A stretch of 24,000 bases of DNA from the NCBI RefSeq assembly GCF_016865425.1, contig NZ_AP023355.1:842198-866197 (forward strand). Direction: 5' to 3'. The stretch comes from Actinocatenispora thailandica (lineage in GTDB: Bacteria > Actinomycetota > Actinomycetes > Mycobacteriales > Micromonosporaceae). Every line of letters starts with the position of its first letter. The stretch's first letter is position 1. This document shows, in pieces, positions 7,609 through 22,700 of the stretch. A program made the translations under genes and the position numbers. The notes under the pieces were generated by a model. The model saw nothing but the letters and a program-made list of their open reading frames with translations, did no database searches and was not told the origin of the DNA.

Positions 7609-8494
7609 CGGCGTCCCTGTTCCGCCCCGGCAGCCGGCCGGAGCGCAGATCGTCGAGCCGGCTGGCCAGGGTGTCGGCGCGCAGCCCGCGCACCAGCACC
7701 TCCAGCGCCGGCTCGATGCTGGTGCCGAGGAAGAACTCCTCGGCCGGGTGGCTGAGGTACAGCCGGCCCTGCTCGTCGACGATGAGAATGCTGCCCTCGT
7801 CGCCGGTCCGGCCGACCGGGAACGTGCGGATGCCGAGCCGACTCGCAAGCCGGAACGCCGACACCTCGACCAGGCGCACATCGGCCGGGAAGAAGTGGAT
7901 CGGAAACGCGCCCACCTGTTCGCCTCGCCCGTAGGGCACCAGGTCGAGCAGGCCGAACTCGCGGTACAGGTCCCGAGCGGCGGGGAACGGTTCGTGTCGC
8001 TGGCCGCGCCCGTCGGTCTGGGCCGCGAACTCGGCCAGCCACGGGTCGACCCGGGCCGCCGCATCCCTCCCCGGCAGCCAACCGGCCGCCAGCAGGGCCG
8101 CTTCGACGTCTCGCTGGAACCGCGGGTGGTGCACGTCGATCTCGTCGAACCGGTCGGCGTCGAACGGGATCGTCGGCGGCTCGTTGGACAACTCGCCCCG
8201 CACCAGTGTGGCCGGCGTGCTCTCCCGGGACTGCCGCTGCTCGTACTCGGCGCGCAGTCGTTTCTCGATCCGACCGGACTCGAACAGCGCCTCCCGGGCC
8301 GCGAGCCGCACGTCCTCCGGGACGGGCGGGCAGCGGTAGCCCTGCTCGACGATGTGGTCCAGGAACGCCGGCTGCGGCGCGAGCCGCCGGTGTTCCAGCT
8401 GGTACGTCGAGATCGTGGACCAGATCCAGACCCCGTCGGTCAGGTACTGCACCGGGACCGCCCAGCGCAGCGCGGGGTTGGCGGGATCGAACAC
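7601..8494 (-). CDS. SUKH-3 domain immunity-type protein with a conserved actinobacterial N-terminal domain (5' end uncertain, see finding)
   Basis: Track ORF with GTG start at 8494. The C-terminal ~170 aa show the SUKH-3 pattern (AGWLPGRD...FGLLDL......FFPADV....LGIRTFPVGRT.....ILIVDEQGRLY...FLGTSIEPALEVLVRG). The frame stays open and protein-like up to 8697 with no ATG/GTG/TTG, so the real N-terminus is probably longer. Confidence 0.7.
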   Translation of the reverse strand: MFDPANPALRWAVPVQYLTDGVWIWSTISTYQLEHRRLAPQPAFLDHIVEQGYRCPPVPEDVRLAAREALFESGRIEKRLRAEYEQRQSRESTPATLVRGELSNEPPTIPFDADRFDEIDVHHPRFQRDVEAALLAAGWLPGRDAAARVDPWLAEFAAQTDGRGQRHEPFPAARDLYREFGLLDLVPYGRGEQVGAFPIHFFPADVRLVEVSAFRLASRLGIRTFPVGRTGDEGSILIVDEQGRLYLSHPAEEFFLGTSIEPALEVLVRGLRADTLASRLDDLRSGRLPGRNRDADG

Positions 8495-8745
8495 GTCGTA
8501 GGTGCGCTCGTCGGAGGGGACCAGCAGCGCACCGGACTGCAGGTAGCGCAGCAGCCGGTCGCGTTCCTCGTCGTCCTCGATCCAGGGCCGGCTGGCCCAC
8601 GGGCGCGGCCGATCGTGCTCGTCGAAGCCGTCCGCGACCGGGGCGAACCGGAACCCGGCGACCTGTTCCGGGGGGTGATCGGGAGCGGTCGAGGCGGTCG
8701 CCAGCCGGCGTCACCCGATGCCGACCCCTGTGCGCGCTCTGCCAT

Positions 8746-8905
8746 CTCACCGCCCTCGGATCCGTTCCGCCAACCCTAACCCGGCGACGCATCCGCCGGG
8801 CGGCAGGCGATGCGCGGGGCGACCCGCCCGTCGCCACCCGCGTACCGGGTGATCGGCTTGGGTAGCCTCGACCGGGGTCGTGGGAACGATGGCACGGGAG
8901 GGGTC
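8746..8905. promoter_or_regulatory. Divergent intergenic region between the minus-strand SUKH-3 operon and the plus-strand deaminase-like/SUKH-3 operon
   Basis: Inferred from gene arrangement only. It is bounded by ATG 8745 (-) with GAGGGCGGTGAG upstream and GTG 8906 (+) with GGGAGGGG upstream. I could not call -10/-35 boxes with confidence. Confidence 0.3.
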
Positions 8906-9622
8906 GTGTTCACGCTGGACGAGGCTCGGCGCATCGCTGCCGCCTGGGTCGACCGTGGGCGGCCGGACGGTGCTCGCTGGCAGGCTCGGGTGCACGAGTT
9001 CGAACTGGGCTACGTGATCTGGGCCGTCCCGGCCGACGGCGACCGGCGCGAGGTCGGTGCTGGCCGTGGTGTCGTGGACAGGATGACCGGCGAGCTGTCG
9101 CTGTGGCCATCGCTGCCCGTGTCGAGCATCGTCGAGATGTTTCGTGCCGAGCGTGCCCGGGAGATCCCCGCTCCACGCACCTGGGACCCAGCCACCCAGG
9201 CCCGCCGCGACCTGGCCCGCGCCGGGTTCCCGGAGCACGTCACCCACCTGACGCTGGCGGATGGGCGAGCCCAGATCAGCCGCAGCACGAAGGGTGACGG
9301 TGAGCTCAACCTGCATCCGCTCGTCGCCGCGGCGCTGGCGGAGCTGCCGCCAGGATCCCGGGAGCGGGCCGCCGAGAGGTGCTCGGAGGTCGCGGCCTTC
9401 TCCGACGTGCTGCACCGGGCCGACACCCAGCGCCAGGCGGACCGGCGGCCGACGCTGTCGCTCGACGAGGTACGAGCCACCCTGTTCCGCGGCGCCGAGA
9501 TCGTCACCTACCGGGTGTGCGAGCCGGGTGACGAACTCGGTGGTCGGACCGTGCCGCCCTGCCTGGCCTGCCAGTACCTGCTCGGGTGGTTCGGCTTCGA
9601 GATGGCGGGGGGACGGCGGTGA
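8906..9622 (+). CDS. YrhB-like (immunity-type) N-domain fused to YwqJ-like deaminase-fold domain with intact CxE / PCxxC motifs
   Basis: Track ORF 8810..9622. I prefer GTG 8906 (VFTLDEARRIA...) because GGGAGGGG lies 4-5 nt upstream. The N-half has GYVIW.....G.GVVDRMTGELS.WPSLPV. The C-half has LADGRAQISRST....LHPLV....ERCSEVAAFSD (Cys 9380-9382, Glu 9386-9388) and PPCLAC (9557-9571). This motif order matches module 2 of the giant gene. Confidence 0.7.
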   Translation: MFTLDEARRIAAAWVDRGRPDGARWQARVHEFELGYVIWAVPADGDRREVGAGRGVVDRMTGELSLWPSLPVSSIVEMFRAERAREIPAPRTWDPATQARRDLARAGFPEHVTHLTLADGRAQISRSTKGDGELNLHPLVAAALAELPPGSRERAAERCSEVAAFSDVLHRADTQRQADRRPTLSLDEVRATLFRGAEIVTYRVCEPGDELGGRTVPPCLACQYLLGWFGFEMAGGRR

Positions 9623-10128
9623 CCGCGCGGTTCGGCCGTACCGCCGAGACGGCGTTGCGGACCGCCGGCTGGACCCCCGGCCGGGACGTGTCGGCCGCGA
9701 CCGCCGAGGCGATCCGGCGCACCGGTGAGCGGATCGGCGCAGACGGTGCCCGGCTGCGGGCGTTCCCGGCGGCGGTCACGGCGCTGAACGAGTTCGGCGG
9801 GCTGGCGATCGTCCCCAGGGAGCCGGGCGTCGATCAGGTACCGCAGCCCTTCGCGTTCGATCCGTTGCTGGCGCCGTTGTGTGCCGAGACCCTCGCCGAC
9901 GTGTCCACCGTCCTCGGTCTGCCGCTCTACCCGCTCGGCGTCGAGGGTGACGTCGCCGCGCTGCTGGCGATCGACGAGCAGGGCCGGGTGTTCTCCATCG
10001 ACCACACCGGCGAGTGGTTCCTCGGTGCGACGGTGGACGCGGCGATCGAGACGCTCGTCGCGGGGCGCCGACCGCCCCGGCTGCGGGACGACGGGACCTG
10101 GCCGCCGGCGGTTCAGCCCGCCTCGTAG
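9619..10128 (+). CDS. SUKH-3 domain immunity-type protein
   Basis: Track ORF 9586..10128. GTG 9619 overlaps the upstream stop (GTGA), which implies translational coupling. The product shows RTAGWTPGRDVS....ALNEFGGLAI......FAFDP.....LGLPLYPLGVEG....LAIDEQGRVF.......FLGATVDAAIETLVAG. It is paralogous to the C-half of 7601..8494. Confidence 0.8.
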   Translation: MTARFGRTAETALRTAGWTPGRDVSAATAEAIRRTGERIGADGARLRAFPAAVTALNEFGGLAIVPREPGVDQVPQPFAFDPLLAPLCAETLADVSTVLGLPLYPLGVEGDVAALLAIDEQGRVFSIDHTGEWFLGATVDAAIETLVAGRRPPRLRDDGTWPPAVQPAS

Positions 10129-10703
10129 CGGTGCTCGAAGTCGGCCAACGCCTTGCGCCGGCCGGCCAGCTCCGCCTCGATTGCGTCCCGCCGGAACCGC
10201 TCGGGTGCCACCTGGAGCGCGAGCCGGCCGGCCGGCGTCCAGAACGACGCCTCGGGCACCTCGTCGGCCCCGGACGCCGCGAACTTGAGCACCTCCGCGG
10301 TTGCCGCTGTCGCCGCGGAGAGCAGGTAGTAGACCGTGGTGAGATCGTCGTCGGACAGGTCGCCGGAGCCGAGCACGGCCTCGGCGTTCATCGTGAAGAG
10401 CTCCGCCGCGCCCAGCCACTCGCCGGCGTCGAGCAGCGTGGACGGCACGTCGTCCGGCCCGTACCGCACGTCGAAGGAGACCACGGGGGGCTCGGTCGGC
10501 AGTTCGAAGGTGAAGCTGCGGTCCCGGCCGCACGCCGGGCACCGACCCGAGTACCGCACGACGAACGCGCCGTCCGCCGAGCTGTGGTCGCTCTGCCGGT
10601 CGAACTGCGCCTCGCCGCAGGCGCACGGCCGCAACTCCATGTAGAGGTACGCCTCGTCGAAGGTGCGGGCGCGGGGAACAGCCATGGGCGCCACGATAGC
10701 CAC
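10113..10703 (-). CDS. Hypothetical protein with CxC...CxxC zinc-ribbon-like motif
   Basis: Track ORF with a GTG start at 10703; the alternative ATG 10685 gives MAVPRARTFDEAYLYMELRPCACGE...GRCPACG. Good G/C third-position bias. Its 3' end overlaps the convergent SUKH-3 gene by 16 nt (10113-10128). Function is unknown and the start codon is uncertain. Confidence 0.6.
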   Translation of the reverse strand: MAIVAPMAVPRARTFDEAYLYMELRPCACGEAQFDRQSDHSSADGAFVVRYSGRCPACGRDRSFTFELPTEPPVVSFDVRYGPDDVPSTLLDAGEWLGAAELFTMNAEAVLGSGDLSDDDLTTVYYLLSAATAATAEVLKFAASGADEVPEASFWTPAGRLALQVAPERFRRDAIEAELAGRRKALADFEHRYEAG

Positions 10704-10747: not shown

Positions 10748-12430
10748 CTACTGGGTGGCGCCGAGCAGGTCCTCCAGCTCCAGGGTGCGCAGATCGTCGC
10801 GGGACGGCATCCGGCCGAGCCTGCGCAGCCGGCCGGACTGCGCCTTACGCATGCTTTCCAGCAGCTTGCGGGCTTCGCGGGCGTTGCCGAAGTTCTGCCC
10901 CATCTGGATCTGGCTGAACCATTCGTACAGCGCGTCGTCCAACCCGTCGCCGAGCAGGTAGTCGTCGTTCTTGGCGATGCGGCTGACGATGAGCAGCAGT
11001 TCCTTGGGCGTGTAGTTCTCGAACTCCAGCGTCTTGGCGAACCGGGAGGCCAGACCGGAGTTGGCGTCGAGGAACTCGGTCATCTCGTTGGTGTAGCCGG
11101 CGACGATCACCGCGATCTCGTCACGGTGGTCTTCCATCAGCTTCACCAGGGTGTCGATGGCCTCCTGACCGAAGTCGCCGCTGCCGCCCCCGGATGCCCG
11201 GGAGAGCGTGTACGCCTCGTCGATGAACAGCACGCCGCCCATCGCCTCCTCGATGACGGCCGAGGTCTTCTCCGCGGTGTGGCCGATGTACTGCCCGACC
11301 ATGTCTCGGCGGGCGACCTCCTTGAACTTGCCGGCCGGGAGCACGCCGAGCGCCTTGAGCAGTTGCCCGTAGATGCGGGCGACGGTGGTCTTGCCGGTAC
11401 CGGGGGCGCCGGTGAAGATCAGGTGGTGGCTGACCGCGCCGACCGCGAGGCCCGCGTTGCGGCGCCACTCGTTGACCTGGATCTCGTCGATCAGCGCCCG
11501 GACCTCGGCCTTGACCGAGGCGAGGCCGACCATGGCGTCCAGGTCGGACAGCAGCCGATCGATCTGGGCGGGGTCCTGCTGGGTGGCGCCTTCCAGCGCG
11601 GCGACGCCGACCTTCGGTCGGTGTGCGGTGGACAGCGGCTCCCGGATGCTGGGGTTCGCGCCCTCGTCGACGTGGATGCCCGGGCTGGCGGTGTTCTCGA
11701 CCCGGCACTCGTCGACCTTGCCGCCACAACCCCGGCCGAACATGATCCCGACGCCCTGAGTGTCGTGGATCCAGGAGCCGTCGATCGTGGGTGAGCTGCC
11801 GTGGGCGATGGAGATGCCCGCGTCGCCGGTCTGCGAGATGTCGCAGCGTTCGATGGTCGGACGCCCGGACTGGTAGACGTACACCCCACGGAAGCCGCAC
11901 CCGGTGATGGTCGAGTTACGGATCGTGGGGTCGGCGCCGAGTCGGACGATGATTCCGTCGTCCGCGACGTTGGTGATCTCGCACTTGTCCAGCAGCCCGC
12001 CGGCGTCCTCGATGACGAAGCCGTACTGCCCGCCGGTCACCTTCGTGTCGGCGGCCTCCAGGCGCGTCCGGTTCGTCACGTTCACCGCGGGCGCGTACCC
12101 GGCCTGCAGAGTGCACTTCTCCAGCGAGATGCGGCCGCCGCGGACATCGACGGTGGCCCGGTCCGCGGACCGCAGGGACAGCCCGCGAACGGTCACCTCG
12201 CAGTCGCGCGCCTGCAGCGTCGGCAGCCCGGCCGAGGTCGAGTCGACCGTCACCGACCCCGCGTCGCCGGACGCCACCAGGGACACCCGCAGGCCGGACA
12301 GCACCAGCGCCTCCGGATACTCACCCGGAGCGATCGAAATGGTGTCGCCGGGCGAGGCGATCTCCAACGCATCGCGGATCGTGGGGTAGGCCCCGGGCTG
12401 CTGGGTCGAGACGACAAGGTTGCGTGCCAT
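10748..12430 (-). CDS. Right-handed beta-helix repeat domain fused to CbbX/SpoVK/EccA-type AAA+ ATPase
   Basis: Track ORF 10748..12655. I prefer ATG 12430 (MARNLVVSTQQPGAYPTIRDALE...) with GGCGGAG upstream; the earlier residues are Arg/Pro junk. The N-terminal ~330 aa have repeated G..V.......I..C.I pectin-lyase-like beta-helix rungs. The C-half has Walker A FTGAPGTGKTTVARIYG (~11380-11412), Walker B VLFIDEAY (~11210-11233), IVAGY and the SRF..T..F..Y tail typical of the CbbX/SpoVK clade. Confidence 0.85.
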   Translation of the reverse strand: MARNLVVSTQQPGAYPTIRDALEIASPGDTISIAPGEYPEALVLSGLRVSLVASGDAGSVTVDSTSAGLPTLQARDCEVTVRGLSLRSADRATVDVRGGRISLEKCTLQAGYAPAVNVTNRTRLEAADTKVTGGQYGFVIEDAGGLLDKCEITNVADDGIIVRLGADPTIRNSTITGCGFRGVYVYQSGRPTIERCDISQTGDAGISIAHGSSPTIDGSWIHDTQGVGIMFGRGCGGKVDECRVENTASPGIHVDEGANPSIREPLSTAHRPKVGVAALEGATQQDPAQIDRLLSDLDAMVGLASVKAEVRALIDEIQVNEWRRNAGLAVGAVSHHLIFTGAPGTGKTTVARIYGQLLKALGVLPAGKFKEVARRDMVGQYIGHTAEKTSAVIEEAMGGVLFIDEAYTLSRASGGGSGDFGQEAIDTLVKLMEDHRDEIAVIVAGYTNEMTEFLDANSGLASRFAKTLEFENYTPKELLLIVSRIAKNDDYLLGDGLDDALYEWFSQIQMGQNFGNAREARKLLESMRKAQSGRLRRLGRMPSRDDLRTLELEDLLGATQ

Positions 12431-12561
12431 GGCTCCGCCGGTGGAAGGGTTGACTTCTGCGCACACTATCTCAGGGGGTCCACGCAGGCGCGGGACGCGG
12501 TGACTTCCTGGCCACGCCCTAGAGTACTGACGACGCAACAGCTTGAGGAGACGCGGACGAC
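12431..12561. promoter_or_regulatory. Divergent intergenic region between the AAA+ gene (-) and the SseB-like gene (+)
   Basis: 131-bp gap between two divergent starts. Inferred from arrangement only; no box-level call. Confidence 0.3.
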
Positions 12562-14100
12562 GTGGATCTCGGCGAGGACGAGCAGCCGCCGGCCTGGCAG
12601 CCGGCGAACGACGTCGAGCGGCTGATGCTCGACGCCCTGGTGCGCAACCACTCACAGGACTACTTCCGGCTGGTGGCGACCGCCCCGCTGTACCTGCCGG
12701 TCTTCCTGGGCGACGCCAACACCGACCGCCAGCGGGTCGTGGTGAAGACCATCTCCGACGCCGAGCACCTGCTCGTGTTCACCTCGGTGCGGGGGCTCAC
12801 CGGGTACGTCGAGGCCGGCTACACGCCCGACAGTCGCCCCGACGGGTACGCCCAGACCAGCTACGAGGAGTTGGCCGCCCGGCGGCCGGAGCCGGAGTGG
12901 CGGCTGGCCATCAACCCGGGCCAGCCGATCGACGCCTACGTCGAGATCGACGCGGTGATGCACGCCGCGCTGGGTGACATCCAGATCCCGCTCGCGGACG
13001 AGCTGATCGACCCGGCCGGGGTCGGCGAGCGCGCGCCGATCCCGGCGGACTTCGTCCCAGCGAACGAGGCGGAGCGGGCCATCGAGTACGGACTGGTCCA
13101 CCGCGACATCGACGTCGCGATCGACGCGTTGGTCGTCGCGGACGTGCTGGTCGCCACGGCGGAGCAGGCCCGGCCGGACGCGGCGCTGACCGACCCGGAC
13201 TTCCCGTGGCAGCTGGAGTCGATCGACGACATCCCGTCGATCTGCGTGTTCACCTCGCAGCAGCGGCTGACCGAGGTGCTTCCACCGGACACCCCGGCGT
13301 ACCCGACGACGCTGGTCAAGCTGGCGCTGGCCTGGCCGGACGAGGACTGCCAGCTGATGGTCAACATCGGTTCGGCGATCGAGCTGGCGTTCGAGGGCGC
13401 GATGATCCCCTCGTTCGTGTCCTGGGCCTCGGACCTGATGGAGCGGGTCGAGTCCGGCGAGTACGCGGAGCCGGCCGATGCCCGGTTGGCGGACGCGGCC
13501 GGCACCGGTGTGGTGGTCGGAGGGCATGCGGTGGACGCGGTGATGCCGCCGGCGATCGGCGACCTGGCGCCGCCGGTCGGTGCCGCGGCGCCGGTGGCCG
13601 ACCCGGTGCTGTTCCAGAAGGTGCTCACGCCCGAACAGGTCCAGGCGTACCTGCGGGGCGGTGACCGGCGTGTCGCGGGCTTCGTCCACCCGTACGAGAG
13701 CGTGCGTGAGCTGACCACGCCACAGCAGCTCTACACCGGGCTCGGCCTGCTGCACGATCGCACCCCGTTCCGCGTCGACGACGAGGAAGTGCACGTTCTG
13801 CGGTGGACTGCCTACTGTCCGGAGCTGTATCGGCTCGCCATCGGTGGACGTGACGAACGGACCCGAGCCGCGGTGGATGGCTGGGTCGTGGCGCCGGCTC
13901 CGTTCCTGGGCAGTGGGATCGCGCCGGGCAGCGCCGGGGCACCGGAGTTCAAGGTGGACAGCGTCGAGTTGCCACACGGCGCGCAGCTGTGCCGGCTGGA
14001 CCGGTACGGGCGGCAGAGCGAGGTGGCGAACTTCGACGCGGACACCGGGACCTGGGCCGCCGCCGTCGGACGGCCGAGCTGGACGGAGGACGTTCGATGA
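12562..14100 (+). CDS. Tandem SseB-like (secretion-chaperone-like fold) domains + uncharacterised C-terminal domain
   Basis: Track ORF with a GTG start. Two copies of the SseB N-domain pattern: PANDVERLMLDAL....FRLVATAPLYLPV......LLVFTS and PANEAERAIEYGL....ALVVADVLVAT......ICVFTSQQRL. The C-terminal ~170 aa (VLRWTAY...GWVVAPAPFLGSGIAPGS..PEFKVDSVELPHGA.L.RLD) match nothing I can name. Confidence 0.75.
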   Translation: MDLGEDEQPPAWQPANDVERLMLDALVRNHSQDYFRLVATAPLYLPVFLGDANTDRQRVVVKTISDAEHLLVFTSVRGLTGYVEAGYTPDSRPDGYAQTSYEELAARRPEPEWRLAINPGQPIDAYVEIDAVMHAALGDIQIPLADELIDPAGVGERAPIPADFVPANEAERAIEYGLVHRDIDVAIDALVVADVLVATAEQARPDAALTDPDFPWQLESIDDIPSICVFTSQQRLTEVLPPDTPAYPTTLVKLALAWPDEDCQLMVNIGSAIELAFEGAMIPSFVSWASDLMERVESGEYAEPADARLADAAGTGVVVGGHAVDAVMPPAIGDLAPPVGAAAPVADPVLFQKVLTPEQVQAYLRGGDRRVAGFVHPYESVRELTTPQQLYTGLGLLHDRTPFRVDDEEVHVLRWTAYCPELYRLAIGGRDERTRAAVDGWVVAPAPFLGSGIAPGSAGAPEFKVDSVELPHGAQLCRLDRYGRQSEVANFDADTGTWAAAVGRPSWTEDVR

Positions 14101-14468: not shown

Positions 14469-14575
14469 ACTGCCGTTCACTTGCTCGCGGCGATTACCGT
14501 TTTCTCGGATAGAGTCGGCATCATTTCTCGTCGATGCGTGCATCGCGACGCGAGGAACGTCCGAGGAGGTGCTGG
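14469..14575 (+). promoter_or_regulatory. Candidate promoter/5' leader of the YbaB-like / EspC-like / giant-toxin operon
   Basis: This is the most AT-rich stretch of the window (…cgattaccgttttctcggatagagtcggcatcatttctcgtcgatg…). It has a TANNNT-type -10 candidate TAGAGT at 14510-14515 and the RBS GAGGAGG at 14563-14569 before ATG 14576. No convincing -35 sits at 17±1 spacing. Confidence 0.35.
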
Positions 14576-15013
14576 ATGATCGACGGGCCGGACCGGCCGC
14601 AGCGACCGGTCGACCACCCGGACTGGAGCGCGCTGCACGGCGCGTTCTCCGACCTGCGCAAACAGGTCGCCCGGGCGAAGGATGTGCAGAAGAAGGTCTT
14701 CCATCTCACGGCCACCGCGTGGTCGCCGGACCGGATGATCAAGGTCGTCGTCGGCCCGCGGGGCCAGCTCGTCGACCTGGACATCGACCCCCGGGTCTAC
14801 CGGCAGCCCAACTCCAAGGCGCTGGCCCGGTCGATCCTGGAGACCAGCCGGCAGGCGATCGAGCAGATCGCCGTGCAGACCGAGCAGATCCTCGACGAGG
14901 ACGTCCCGGCCGACCTGCGCATCGGCCGCACCGGTGCGGTCGATTTCCGCGCCGTGCTGAAGAGCCACGACGCCGAACTCCCGAAGAAGGTCGACGCGGA
15001 GGAGGACGACTGA
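14576..15013 (+). CDS. YbaB/EbfC-like small protein (type found in ESX-associated operons)
   Basis: Track ORF 14534..15013. I prefer ATG 14576 (MIDGPDRP...) with GAGGAGG 7 nt upstream. The core MIKVVVGPRGQLVDLDIDPRVYR.PNSKALARSILETSRQAIEQ fits the YbaB/EbfC pattern. Acidic tail. Confidence 0.75.
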   Translation: MIDGPDRPQRPVDHPDWSALHGAFSDLRKQVARAKDVQKKVFHLTATAWSPDRMIKVVVGPRGQLVDLDIDPRVYRQPNSKALARSILETSRQAIEQIAVQTEQILDEDVPADLRIGRTGAVDFRAVLKSHDAELPKKVDAEEDD

Positions 15014-16167
15014 TGGGCGAGGGCACGTTCGTCCAGATGGACGGCGACGCAACCAACTCCGCCGGCGCCCGGTACGCGCTGGCCGGTGACCGGTTGACCG
15101 CCAGAGGGTCGGCGGTGCGGTCCGGGATCGAGTCGGCCGAGGGACCGGCGCCCTGGGGCGACGACAAGTTCGGTAAGGCCTTCCTGGAAAAGTACGGCAA
15201 CCCGCAGGACGGCGACGAGACGCTGACCTTCATGACCGACGGTGGCGACCAGGTCAGTACGGTCGGCAACGCGGTGCAGTGGGCGGCCGTCGACGGAATC
15301 GACGCGGACTCGCAGGCCAAGCAGGCGATCCACTCGCTCGAGACCGACAAGCCGAAGGTGGCGGGCTCGCGCAGCGGCAGCATCATGACCGCGACCCGGA
15401 CCCGCTCCGAGCGGACCGGCTCGTCCGGCAACGGCACCGGGTCCGGGTCCGGCGGAAGCCGAACCACCGGAGCGGTCGACGCGAGGTACGCGACCGCCGA
15501 GGCCACCGGCGGCGAGGGCACCGACAGCCGGCAGCCGGACCGCCGGCTGTCGCTCGCCAGTGTCGCCACCGGCGGCATGACGATGCTGCATGCGGTGGAC
15601 GAACCGACCCCGCACGAGGGCGACCGACGGATGGCGCACGAGGTCTTCCGTTCCGGCGTCGGCTGGGTCACCGACGGTGTGTTGCCGGAGGGCTCCGAGC
15701 GGCCCGGCGACGGTTCCGATCAGGTCGAGTTCCGGCGTGCCACCGCCGCGGAGTTCACGCCGGTGGACGGCGCGTCGGCGCGGGCCGGCGAGTTGCACGC
15801 GGTGTACCGGCAGGACGGCGCACCGACCGACGGGGCCGCGCCGATGCACCCCGCGGGCTCCCCGCAGCCGGGATCCGGCTGGTCGGCCGGCCATGGCTAC
15901 CCGGAGTTCCGCGCCGTGGACCAGACCGGCGGGGTGGTCGGGCAGGCGCAGGACGTCGTGTCCACCGACCAGCACGGCGGAGTGCAGGGCATGGAGCACG
16001 CCGAGTTCCGGGTGGACGGTGCCGGCCAGCCCGTCGACGGAGCCGAACGGTACGTGCAGGAGGTCTACCGGCAGGACGGCGGCTGGACCCCGACGGCGGC
16101 GGTCGCCGATCCCCAGGGAATGGTCCGGGCCGAGGGAACGGTGCTGCCGGGGGCAGAACAGGTCTAG
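15013..16167 (+). CDS. EspC/WXG-like N-terminal helical domain protein with Gly/Ser linker and repeated C-terminal motifs
   Basis: Track ORF 14440..16167. ATG 15013 overlaps the upstream stop (TGATG). The N-terminus has FVQMDGDATNSAGARYALAGDRL......PWGDDKFGKAFLEKY, the W-G-x-D..G..F...Y pattern of small T7S-associated proteins. The C-half carries two copies of EF..VDG......VYRQDG (identical 15-mer taccggcaggacggc at 15805 and 16066). Confidence 0.7.
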   Translation: MGEGTFVQMDGDATNSAGARYALAGDRLTARGSAVRSGIESAEGPAPWGDDKFGKAFLEKYGNPQDGDETLTFMTDGGDQVSTVGNAVQWAAVDGIDADSQAKQAIHSLETDKPKVAGSRSGSIMTATRTRSERTGSSGNGTGSGSGGSRTTGAVDARYATAEATGGEGTDSRQPDRRLSLASVATGGMTMLHAVDEPTPHEGDRRMAHEVFRSGVGWVTDGVLPEGSERPGDGSDQVEFRRATAAEFTPVDGASARAGELHAVYRQDGAPTDGAAPMHPAGSPQPGSGWSAGHGYPEFRAVDQTGGVVGQAQDVVSTDQHGGVQGMEHAEFRVDGAGQPVDGAERYVQEVYRQDGGWTPTAAVADPQGMVRAEGTVLPGAEQV

Positions 16168-19700: not shown

Positions 19701-22700
19701 CGAGCATCGGGTGCGGGCCCGGCAGGACCTCGCCCGGGCGGCCCGCGACCGCGCCATCGCCACCGTGCGGCACGAGAACGCCGAGCGGCAGTACGCGAGG
19801 GCGGAGAAGCGGGCCGACCGGCGCCACGCGCCCGACGGGTTGCTGCGGCACCTGCCGAGCAACGCCAGCCAGGCCGAGATCGCGGTCATGTCCGACTACG
19901 CGCGGCACGTCGAGCGGCAGATCGACCCGGCCACGGTCGTCGCGGACGAAGCCCGGTACGGGCAGGAGGACTTCCAGCGGCAGGCGCTCGGCGACGACTA
20001 CGCGGCGGTGCGCGCGGATGCCCAGCGGGACGCCGGTGGCGACCCGGCCGGGGTCCGCGAGCGGATGGCCGATGCCACCCGGGAGGCCCACCAGCGTCGG
20101 GTCCTCGGCGACGGCTACGACTCGCTGCGCGCCAAGGCCGAGCAGGGCGGTCGGGACGCGGCCACGGTCGAGGACCGGATGGCACGGCACACCCACGTGG
20201 CGGAGAAGCTGGCCGACGTGCGGGTGCACGCGTACGAGATCGGCGGCGACCGGCACGGCGAGATCTCCCATCCGGACCCGGTCACCGAGCGGAGCCTGGA
20301 ACGCGCCGGGATCGACCACGACCGGCTCGCCGACGTGCTGGACGGCGCACTGCTCGCCGATCCGGAACACCCGAACCGCATCGTGCTCGGGCGGGCCGGC
20401 AGCGAGCTGCGCGAGTTCGGCGAGCAGGTGCCGGACCACCCCGACCACCTGGTGATCGTCGCCGAGCGCGGCCCGAACGGCCTGCGTTTCGACGGTCGCG
20501 ACCTGTCCCATGCCGAGCTGGTCAAGGTGCTCCGAGACGTCGGACTGCCGCGGCCCGACCAGCGGATCGTGCTGGTCACCAGCGACGGCGGCAGCGTCGC
20601 CCGCGATCTTGCCCGGGAGTTCCGCACCGAGGTGTACGCGCTGCCGGAGCACGCCACGCTCGCCGGCGACGGCACGTTCGGCGTCGAGCGGCGGGCCGGC
20701 GGCGAGGAGGTGCCGGCCGGCGACGGCTGGCGACTTCACGAGCCGTACGGCACCAGCACCGAGGCGGACCTGCACCGCGAGTACCAGGACGCCCGCGCCG
20801 AGGCACACGAGCGCGGCTGGGAGGGGTACGAGCAGCGCGAGACCCGGCACGAGCCGAGCCAGCGCCCCGACCGCGACCAGCGACCGATCCGCCTCGCCGG
20901 GAACGGCCAGAGCGACCTGCACCGCGATCTGTCCGAGGAGGGCACCGGACGGCTGAAGACGCTGTCCAACGCCCGGATCATCGACCGGGTCGTGGGCGAT
21001 CTGGGCCTCGACCGGCACCGCCCGTTGCGGCTCGACGAGCAGCGCGTCGCCGAGATCCTGAAGACGGAGGTGGACGAGCGCGACGACCCGGCGCGGCGCC
21101 GGCTCCAGCAGATCGTGGAGCAGGAGTTCACGCATCTGGACGCGGACGGCAACCGGACGCCGAACAGCACCACCGAGATCCGTCAGCGCATCGCCGAACT
21201 GCGAGCCGAGGCACGCCAGGAGTACGCGGATGCGCGGGCCGCGGGCGACACCCGCGCCGGCACCCCGGAGTACGGCGACCGGTTGGAGCAGGTCGGCGGG
21301 TCCGGCGGCGAGGGGCACGGGTACACCCGGTCGGAGCCGCCGTCGAGGCACCGGGATCCGAACAGCCCGGCGGATCGTGCCGATGCCCGCGCCAGGGCGG
21401 TGAAGTTCGCCGACGACGTGCTCTACGCCGATCTGCGGGCGTTCGCGGAACACCCGGACGATCCGCCGGCGCGGCCGTCGATGGCGACGGTCATCATGAG
21501 CCCGGACGGCACGTTGCACTTCAGTACCTCCCGGACGGGTGTCGCGGGTGATGGCGTGCCGGCGGGGACACACCCGCTGATCGCCGCGGACTACCACCTC
21601 GTCGAGCACCAGCTCACCGGACACGGCAACGGTGAGGCAGAGTTCTGGGTCGGCGACGCCAACCACGGCGGGAGCCCGGTCTGGTTCAAGGAGTGGAGCC
21701 AGCGCAACCCGGAACTGGCGGAACTGGCCAAGCAGCACGACGCGGCTCTCGACCGCCGCCAGGGGGTGCTGGACAGCCTCAGGAAGCTCCCGGCCAGCGC
21801 GCCGGAGCAGGCCCGGACGCGGCTGACCGAACTGGCGACCCAGCGGGAGACCGAGGCCGGGCAGATCGACCGGGCCCTGCAGGAGAAGGCGGCCGAGCAG
21901 GGCAAGCAGCAGGAACTCGCCGACTACAAACGGTTCAAGAGCCTGTACGACGCGGAGCGCCCGGACGAGGCCGGTCGCCGGCAGGAGTGGTTGAACCGCC
22001 GGTTGGAGATCGCCGAGCGGTACACGCCTGGCCGGGGGCACGGCCGCTGCTCCGAGGTGTCCGGGCTGTCCGACCATGCCAAGCGGCTCGACCGCGAGTA
22101 CGACCAGTTGGGCCGGCGGGACGCGGCCCGGGTCGAGCACGCCAAGGAGTCGGTGCAGCGGCGCAACCTGGGCGAGCTGTACGACCGGCTGAAGGGGTCG
22201 GGTGCCACCGACCAGGAGCTGGCCCGGCACAGCTACGTCGCCGAACGGCTGCGCGAGATCTCGATCACCGCGCACCAGATCGGCGGCACCTTCCAGGTCG
22301 AGCACGGTGAGTACCGCGCGCCGTGCACGAGCTGTGAGCATGCGGAGCGGAATCTCGGCATCGTTCCGGATCACCTGCGGGAGATCGCCGACCGGGTGGC
22401 GCTGGGTGAGCCCAACAAGCTCGTGCTGGCCGAGCCGGGCACCGATCTCGCCCGGTACGCGGCCAACATTCCCCGGCACCCGGACGCGTTCGTCCTGGTG
22501 GCGCACGGCGAGCCGAACGCACTGACGTTCGACGGGTACCGGCTGAACCCGCGCGAGGTGCACGACCTGCTCGTCCAGGCGGGCTGGCGACCGGACCAGC
22601 GGATCGTCCTGCTCGGCTGCCGGGGCGGCGAGGTCCGCTACGACTGGCCGGGCAGCTTCGGCGCCGAGCTGCACAACGAGACCGGAGTGCCGGTCGTCGT

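Follow-up and report, generated by a model that had tools for sequence, protein, structure and literature searches.

A deaminase–SUKH-3 gene pair with an unnamed N-terminal domain in the ESX toxin region of Actinocatenispora thailandica

The gene pair

The 24,000-nucleotide stretch of the Actinocatenispora thailandica genome analyzed here (contig NZ_AP023355.1, positions 842,198 to 866,197; hereafter, the window; 72% G+C) contains two overlapping genes within an ESX (type VII secretion) toxin and immunity region: gene A, which encodes a protein combining an N-terminal domain (hereafter, the head) with a deaminase domain of the YwqJ clade, and gene B, which encodes a SUKH-3 immunity-type protein (Table 1). 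Gene A is part of an open reading frame (ORF) that spans positions 8810-9622, and the GTG at 8906 is favored as its start because homologues begin at the equivalent residue and the protein in the cluster database consists of 238 amino acids (aa); codon-position G+C agrees with a gene at 8906-9622. The identity of gene B is clear from its match to the Pfam SUKH-3 family (PF14433; 133.3 bits against a cut-off of 23, E = 9.7e-39). The junction between the two genes is similarly tight in relatives (their loci are denoted by L numbers), with overlaps of 4 nucleotides in L005 and L039 and 8 nucleotides in L010 and a gap of 3 nucleotides in L001, and SUKH-3 is located directly downstream of the deaminase or fused to it in every head-deaminase locus examined. 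Inspection of the gene A product by eye revealed neither a signal peptide nor a WXG/LXG-type N-terminus, and no WXG100/LXG/LDxD-type Pfam domain was detected in it, the N-terminal position being occupied by the head instead. The first-pass annotation, made from the letters of this stretch and their translations, had described a stand-alone deaminase-type protein without a secretion-type N-terminus that is coupled to a SUKH-3 gene by a GTGA stop/start overlap, and this description agrees with both the Pfam matches and the reading of the junction.

The deaminase assignment rests on a match to the Pfam YwqJ-deaminase family (PF14431; E = 3.1e-20, with a score of 73.2 bits where 25.9 are required), and all four motifs quoted in the first-pass annotation (DGRAQISRST, LHPLV, RCSEVAAFSD and PPCLAC) are found in gene A. 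In an alignment of 15 homologues (39-82% identity), E161, C219, C222 and H137 are invariant, and position 159 is occupied by Cys in the split forms and by His in four aligned Micromonospora fusions. Both CxE and HxE variants, as well as a conserved His in the insert that separates strand 2 from helix 2, have been described as features of the YwqJ clade (Iyer et al. 2011, PMC3239186); in the AlphaFold2 (AF2) model of gene A, H137 is placed between the strand at 122-126 and the helix at 160-178. Across the family, R[CH]xE followed by CxxC is kept in 65 of the 76 members with a deaminase domain. Judging from these residues, the gene A product is best explained as a catalytically competent deaminase of the YwqJ clade, in line with the earlier caution that it should not be assumed inert. 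The AF2 model, built with 45 sequences, has high confidence scores (predicted local distance difference test, pLDDT, 90; predicted template modeling score, pTM, 0.85); in a Foldseek search of the PDB, its top matches are mostly cytidine and blasticidin-S deaminases at E-values of 0.15-0.8 and target template modeling scores of about 0.4, and the fold evidence is weak because no match is better than E = 0.15. The type member of the clade, the YwqJ protein of Bacillus subtilis, is a cytidine deaminase of single-stranded DNA that is delivered by a type VIIb secretion system and neutralized by its immunity protein YwqK, which binds to it (bioRxiv 10.64898/2026.09.29.755374); by analogy, cytidine in single-stranded DNA is the likely substrate of the gene A product.

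Table 1. Features of the window, with the evidence on which each is placed
Feature	Position	Strand	Basis
Substrate-like genes	847-6392	+	
WHH nuclease-SUKH-1 fusion, 337 aa, toxin-type and immunity-type in one chain	6595..7608	-	Pfam
Second SUKH-3 protein, SUKH-3 over aa 126-270, N-terminal region unassigned	7601..8494	-	Pfam
Shine-Dalgarno-like GGGAGGGG before gene A GTG	8896..8903	+	read from sequence
Gene A, 238 aa, head and YwqJ-clade deaminase	8906..9622	+	ORF, Pfam PF14431, 42 full-length homologues, AF2
Head domain, aa 1-92	8906..9181	+	alignments, profile search
YwqJ-like deaminase domain, aa 107-230	9224..9595	+	Pfam match, profile positions 15-137 of 138
His137 of HPLV, conserved His of the strand-2/helix-2 insert, YwqJ-clade marker	9314..9316	+	invariant in alignment
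C159-S-E161, zinc ligand and catalytic Glu, [CH]xE motif	9380..9388	+	sequence, alignment
P218-C219-L-A-C222, PCxxC zinc-binding motif	9557..9571	+	sequence, alignment
GTGA, overlap of gene B start GTG and gene A stop TGA	9619..9622	+	read from sequence
Gene B, 169 aa, SUKH-3 immunity-type protein	9619..10128	+	Pfam PF14433
196-aa CxxC...CxxC protein, convergent with gene B	10113..10703	-	tblastn relatives
Beta-helix and CbbX/EccA-type AAA+ ATPase	10748..12655	-	Pfam
SseB-like protein	12562-14100	+	
YbaB-like protein	14534-15013	+	
385-aa protein	about 15010-16167	+	
Giant toxin	16255 onward	+	
YwqJ-like deaminase module with large inserts, giant aa 1741-2029	21475..22341	+	weak BLASTP and HMM pieces, sub-threshold Pfam

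The head domain and its family

The head is a real, widespread domain that has not been named. A search of 1.84 billion cluster representatives with a head-only profile (E ≤ 0.001) found it in at least 227 protein clusters. Using our own hidden Markov models (HMMs) together with Pfam, we assigned architectures in the best 148 of these 227 clusters: the head is fused directly to SUKH-3 in 29, is part of a single head-deaminase-SUKH-3 chain in 23, is combined with the deaminase as in gene A in 11, follows SUKH-3 in 1, and precedes an XOO_2897 deaminase and SUKH-4 in at least 7; in the remainder, it is alone or joined to unassigned sequence. In the AF2 model, the head consists of a helix, four strands and another helix, and the alignments show conservation of W14, E31-F32, G35, G51, D58, T61-G62 and W67-P68. 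Public records label the family proteins merely 'immunity protein' or 'putative deaminase'.

In a tree of head domains, the head-SUKH-3 proteins form one group and the XOO_2897 proteins form another, and the split and fused YwqJ forms interleave, which implies that a single functional unit has been fused and split again more than once. Given that XOO_2897 and SUKH-4 are also a known pairing, the same three-part layout has been built with two deaminase clades, each with its cognate SUKH domain. The model of one Micromonospora fusion (P0035) is a single compact body with no low-confidence linker (pLDDT 90.5, pTM 0.89). The A/B pair is best explained as the split form of this conserved single-chain head-deaminase-SUKH protein.

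The family is conserved as a unit. Full-length homologues of gene A, with the head included, are present in several genera, and the head-YwqJ-SUKH-3 fusion has 377 homologues at E ≤ 1e-10; among the 120 of these that were listed, all those with a source name come from Micromonospora, at 65-84% identity. In the class, the head is encoded in 18 of the 251 sampled genomes, in one copy each, and one genus, Streptomyces (the genus being taken from named homologues), encodes it in all 11 sampled genomes as head-XOO_2897-SUKH-4, a protein of approximately 900 aa with the NCBI label 'SUKH-4 family immunity protein'. The presence of one copy per sampled genome across Micromonospora and Streptomyces thus points to a stable, vertically inherited unit. 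The locus of Actinocatenispora sera is collinear with the window, with gene A 82% and gene B 85% identical; these values fall within the range of their neighbors (60-64% for the substrate-like genes, 70% for the N-terminus of the giant toxin and 93% for the ATPase), which corresponds to ordinary orthologous divergence rather than to the hypervariability of polymorphic toxin tips.

The first-pass annotation had called the head YrhB-like, that is, similar to the immunity family Imm35 (PF15567), which is the YrhB family (a control search gives a match in E. coli, and NCBI names its members 'YrhB domain-containing'). At best, part of this proposal survives, as a possible distant likeness. The head has no match in Pfam or NCBIfam even at E ≤ 10, Imm35 matches none of the 45 close and 148 distant relatives, and a genome-wide Imm35 search recovered two true Imm35 genes elsewhere in the genome and did not match the head gene. 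In profile-profile comparison with hhalign, a 147-sequence head alignment was matched to 12 Imm35 sequences, a shallow alignment, with 76.8% probability (E = 2e-5; 64 collinear columns), with SUKH-3 and deaminase controls at 0.1-1.5%; with shallow alignments on both sides (9 against 9 sequences), however, the probability dropped to 3.8% (E = 0.011). Searches of PDB sequence profiles with the head and with Imm35 returned nothing useful. Because the curated models fail and the profile-profile signal varies with alignment depth, we do not assign the head to Imm35, of which it is possibly a remote relative, to judge from the profiles. The two are similar in size and in their alpha+beta layout, and the motifs E-[FY]..G[WY]V and, further along, G..VVD+..G..W occur collinearly in both; they differ in their partners, which are deaminases and SUKH domains in the case of the head and not Tox-PL1 or Ntox40. 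Imm35 itself has been reported in fusions with papain-like toxins, an ADP-ribosyl glycohydrolase and an S8 peptidase, the last of these noted by Zhang et al. 2012 (PMC3482391). In Allocatelliglobosispora (L008), a head-SUKH-3-like protein without a deaminase (8001-8615) overlaps the start of a mycosin gene, which encodes an S8 peptidase (8603-9763), in an ESX core cluster. In A. thailandica, a canonical Imm35 gene (L013; G000:C1:3912504-3913091) is located right after the Gln_amidase match of a 2151-aa open frame, a textbook toxin-immunity pair that can serve as a positive control for the pairing of Imm35 with Tox-PL1.

Neighborhood of the pair and of its relatives

The region belongs to an ESX setting: EccB is encoded 6 kilobases (kb) before the window, and the EccC gene comes ahead of the collinear block in A. 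sera. Head genes are found beside WXG100_2 giant toxins in Carbonactinospora, Cryptosporangium, Micromonospora, Allocatelliglobosispora and metagenomes; Gln_amidase and/or YwqJ domains are present in these giant toxins, which frequently have YbaB, SseB and the same AAA+ gene in their vicinity. A general rule that the head always accompanies Gln_amidase can be discarded, given that a Streptomyces genome encodes the head and no Gln_amidase. The AAA+ gene adjoins a deaminase/SUKH-3 pair also in L003, L005 and L039. Beyond the beta-helix AAA+ gene, L003 contains a second, head-less YwqJ deaminase of 130 aa with its own SUKH-3 (11514-12388); a head-less YwqJ and SUKH-3 are located beyond a remnant of the AAA+ gene in L009 (11149-12051) and are fused into a 286-aa protein in L005 (11099-11959). 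In Micromonospora mangrovi, an endonuclease V (EndoV) gene (L007:672-1334, minus strand) lies a few genes from both the WXG100_2 giant toxin and the head-deaminase-SUKH-3 fusion, a placement that echoes the EndoV-YwqJ linkage newly reported in B. subtilis.

The window and the Streptomyces loci also have other neighbors in common. The WHH-SUKH-1 fusion of the window is 37-39% identical, over the full length, to a 337-aa Streptomyces protein (L036:10030-11043, minus strand), the gene for which is directly upstream of the head-XOO_2897-SUKH-4 gene. The Streptomyces head locus additionally encodes a divergently oriented YwqJ deaminase, which in L035 and L037 is followed by a SUKH-3 protein that is 45-46% identical to gene B, and the head gene itself is far from EccB and WXG100_2 genes. 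Thus, a handful of toxin-type domains travel together across distant actinomycetes, every one of them linked to an immunity-type domain of its own, and the presence of WHH-SUKH-1 beside head-deaminase genes in both Actinocatenispora and Streptomyces suggests a conserved cluster of self-neutralized toxin modules.

The 196-aa CxxC protein that converges with gene B matches no Pfam family and has homologues with 38-46% identity in L003, L005, L009 (where the gene is broken) and L010, in addition to an A. sera ortholog with 80% identity; it is one more conserved gene of these ESX toxin loci. The second SUKH-3 protein has an A. sera ortholog of 381 aa. Its frame (7601-8710, minus strand) remains protein-like above the GTG at 8494 and aligns from residue 26 of that ortholog (82% identity); this upstream part contains no in-frame start codon, possibly due to a frameshift or a sequencing error. 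The possibility that the N-terminal region of this protein is a degenerate deaminase or head received no HMM support.

The giant toxin had to be searched against Pfam in pieces, the whole-length search having given no matches; its Gln_amidase (Tox-PL1) domain, at about aa 2550-2680, straddles the end of the window. The giant ORF ends after 3264 aa (at L017:2049, L017 being the stretch G000:C1:866198-884197) and is followed by overlapping long ORFs in other frames, at 25224-29435 (with a PP2C phosphatase domain) and from 29141 to beyond 42001 in extended coordinates. For A. sera, the annotation gives the ortholog as a single protein of 10,631 aa, and the break in A. thailandica might reflect frameshifts or separate genes.

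Proposed role, alternatives and known systems

Our preferred reading, with a probability that we put at about one half, is that gene A encodes a cytoplasmic deaminase that is held by SUKH-3 and released only under some condition. The products of genes A and B would form a two-protein complex in the cytoplasm, with B as the SUKH-3 inhibitor of the deaminase; because the two are made together via the overlapping stop and start codons, the deaminase would be born inhibited. The enzyme would be a latent effector that becomes active only once the SUKH block is relieved, possibly through the loss or turnover of B or through a competing ligand at SUKH-3 or the head, so that the pair would behave like a toxin-antitoxin or guard module within the ESX toxin/immunity region. 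Many relatives combine these parts in a single protein, so the enzyme probably stays in a locked state within the cell and is not only fired at rivals. Of the three roles listed in the first-pass annotation, namely a toxin-antitoxin-like pair, an editor held in check by SUKH-3 and a reservoir cassette for the giant gene, the first two are the best fit to the deaminase-SUKH-3 fusions and to the interleaved head tree. We therefore read the pair neither as a cassette held in reserve for the giant toxin nor as a polymorphic toxin of the usual, rapidly evolving sort.

Several observations weigh against this reading. The binding and neutralization of A by B is predicted indirectly, from the fusions and from the pTM of 0.89 of the fused chain, and the release trigger is a step that we infer. 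In Micromonosporales-type genomes, the pair is always found in ESX giant-toxin loci, and in four relatives, the start of the gene overlaps the stop of the upstream gene, which in L003 encodes a Gln_amidase toxin domain; this pattern of ESX location and overlap suits an export or an immunity role equally well. The conserved EccA-like AAA+ neighbor could strip B from A for export. The PADLOC-DB 2.0 models yielded no defense-system match for A, B or the P0035 fusion and only generic AAA matches for the ATPase, and Foldseek searches lend the fold weak support, the model of gene A having no match below E = 0.15 and that of the fusion giving nothing but noise. We would propose only tentatively, as a conjecture that is itself unlikely to be correct in full, that the family as a whole, split and single-chain forms alike, consists of self-locked DNA cytidine deaminases acting in the producer, as an effector released by a trigger, as an APOBEC-like guard against phages, plasmids or incoming toxins, or as a developmental cell-death or mutator enzyme, with SUKH and/or the head as the sensor and with the likewise self-locked WHH-SUKH-1 protein as a partner in Streptomyces and Actinocatenispora.

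Two alternatives place the pair in the service of the ESX toxins. In one of these, gene A would encode an accessory ESX effector that is attached by its head to a secreted protein, for instance the giant toxin; the EccA-like AAA+ protein would remove SUKH-3 ahead of export, and B would protect the producer and its kin. The genomic setting is compatible with this scenario, with EccB about 6 kb away, EccC ahead of the collinear block, relatives that adjoin WXG100_2 giant toxins (and, in L008, lie inside an ESX core cluster) and the AAA+ gene as a conserved neighbor flanked by deaminase/SUKH-3 pairs, and B. subtilis YwqJ is indeed a toxin delivered by a type VII secretion system. However, gene A encodes no WXG/LXG/LDxD domain and no signal peptide was seen in its sequence, although it might conceivably leave the cell by hitch-hiking on a partner; moreover, the fusion of the deaminase to its own inhibitor in 23 representatives and of the head to SUKH-3 without a toxin in 29 would be senseless if the toxin were exported, the genes for EccB and WXG100_2 proteins are distant from the Streptomyces members, and the evolutionary rate is ordinary. 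On balance, we consider export to be unlikely, as a minority view that the locus nevertheless accommodates. The other alternative, which we find doubtful, centers on immunity: the head, as a diverged Imm35, would neutralize the Tox-PL1/Gln_amidase domain of the giant toxin and SUKH-3 its YwqJ-like module, with the deaminase of gene A being a captive partner that stabilizes the cell's immunity genes or 'addicts' the cell to them. A captive domain with a purely structural task would have no need of the conserved catalytic Glu, the Imm35 model does not match the head at all, the profile comparison with shallow alignments gives a negative result, and the Streptomyces genome G213 encodes a head protein and no Gln_amidase anywhere. 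What gives this scheme its appeal is that the giant toxin contains both a YwqJ-like (aa 1741-2029) and a Gln_amidase (about aa 2550-2680) module, that Imm35 is paired with Tox-PL1 and Imm35-toxin fusions have been noted (Zhang et al. 2012, PMC3482391), and that the same genome has a true Imm35 gene right after a toxin with a Gln_amidase match at its end; furthermore, the head gene of L003 directly follows, and overlaps, a gene with a Gln_amidase domain, the head-SUKH-3 fusions resemble dual-immunity proteins, and the deeper hhalign comparison relates the head to Imm35 with 77% probability.

A third possibility is that the pair, as an orphan toxin cassette plus immunity gene, is a reserve that can recombine into the giant gene at its 3' part. 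Stand-alone cassettes near a complete toxin gene are known in deaminase polymorphic toxin systems (PMC3239186), and the first-pass annotation had reported the same motif series in gene A and in the second toxin module of the giant protein. The motif order does agree, and BLASTP aligns three collinear pieces (gene A aa 109-142 with giant aa 1741-1778, 154-195 with 1927-1969 at E = 0.08, and 218-224 with 2023-2029); nevertheless, these pieces are weak, our own family HMM yields the same weak collinear pieces, and the Pfam YwqJ model scores 20.6 bits in the giant module, below the cut-off of 25.9 (E = 5.5e-4). At the level of DNA, blastn and tblastn comparisons of positions 8700-10200 with 27 kb of the giant-gene region detected no similarity. 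The head is a folded, widely conserved domain rather than a truncated remnant, several genera possess full-length orthologs of gene A, and A. sera has a collinear locus in which gene A shows ordinary divergence at 82% identity. Because export signals are absent from the pair and it has neither DNA nor a recombination handle in common with the giant gene, the reservoir-cassette proposal is disfavored, and we consider it highly improbable.

The components of this system have precedents. The toxin-immunity pairings of YwqJ with SUKH3 and of XOO_2897 with SUKH4 have been described (Iyer, Zhang, Rogozin and Aravind 2011, PMC3239186), and by 2011-2012 the literature also covered polytoxins in which YwqJ occurs together with papain-like peptidases, cassettes that stand alone, and sporadic fusions of SUKH to toxins (PMC3239186; Zhang et al. 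2011, PMC3113570; PMC3482391). In the text of these three papers, no mention was found of the head family (although architectures drawn in their figures may differ), of a recurrent head-deaminase-SUKH chain with two deaminase clades and a single copy in sampled Micromonospora and Streptomyces genomes, or of a linkage of head-deaminase genes to a WHH-SUKH-1 fusion. Pairs of YwqJ and SUKH-3 have been on record since 2011, and the head family with its conserved single-chain layout is a new form of this kind.

Until now, YwqJ-clade deaminases have been regarded as toxins that are exported against other bacteria, and SUKH proteins as the immunity to them. Here, the same toxin-inhibitor couple is stable and single-copy throughout the genomes sampled from entire genera of actinomycetes that produce antibiotics; it is often a single chain, and the unnamed domain always precedes it at the N-terminus. 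If the enzyme acts in the cell that makes it, bacteria would have a counterpart of the regulated DNA deaminases of eukaryotes, as well as a ready-made deaminase for study that comes with its own inhibitor; if it is exported, the head would represent a previously undescribed means by which cargo is loaded onto ESX toxins. Under either reading, the head merits definition as a family.

As a locked deaminase, the A/B pair would have a functional analog in fused toxin-antitoxin sensors such as CapRel(SJ46), in which a toxin and its neutralizing domain reside in one chain, so that a ligand, and not the separate synthesis of the two parts, must release the activity. The analogy is limited to function: the folds are unrelated, and the present system shows no link to phages and no PADLOC match. 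Among the closest known counterparts is YwqJ-YwqK of B. subtilis, with which the A/B pair shares the PF14431 clade, the [CH]xE and CxxC motifs, the His in the insert, a dedicated inhibitor gene located immediately downstream and the type VII context. YwqJ, however, is an exported protein with an LXG trafficking domain and a PT-TG module, whereas gene A encodes an alpha+beta head and no trafficking signature, and, unlike the YwqJ-YwqK pair, relatives of gene A are fused to their inhibitor.

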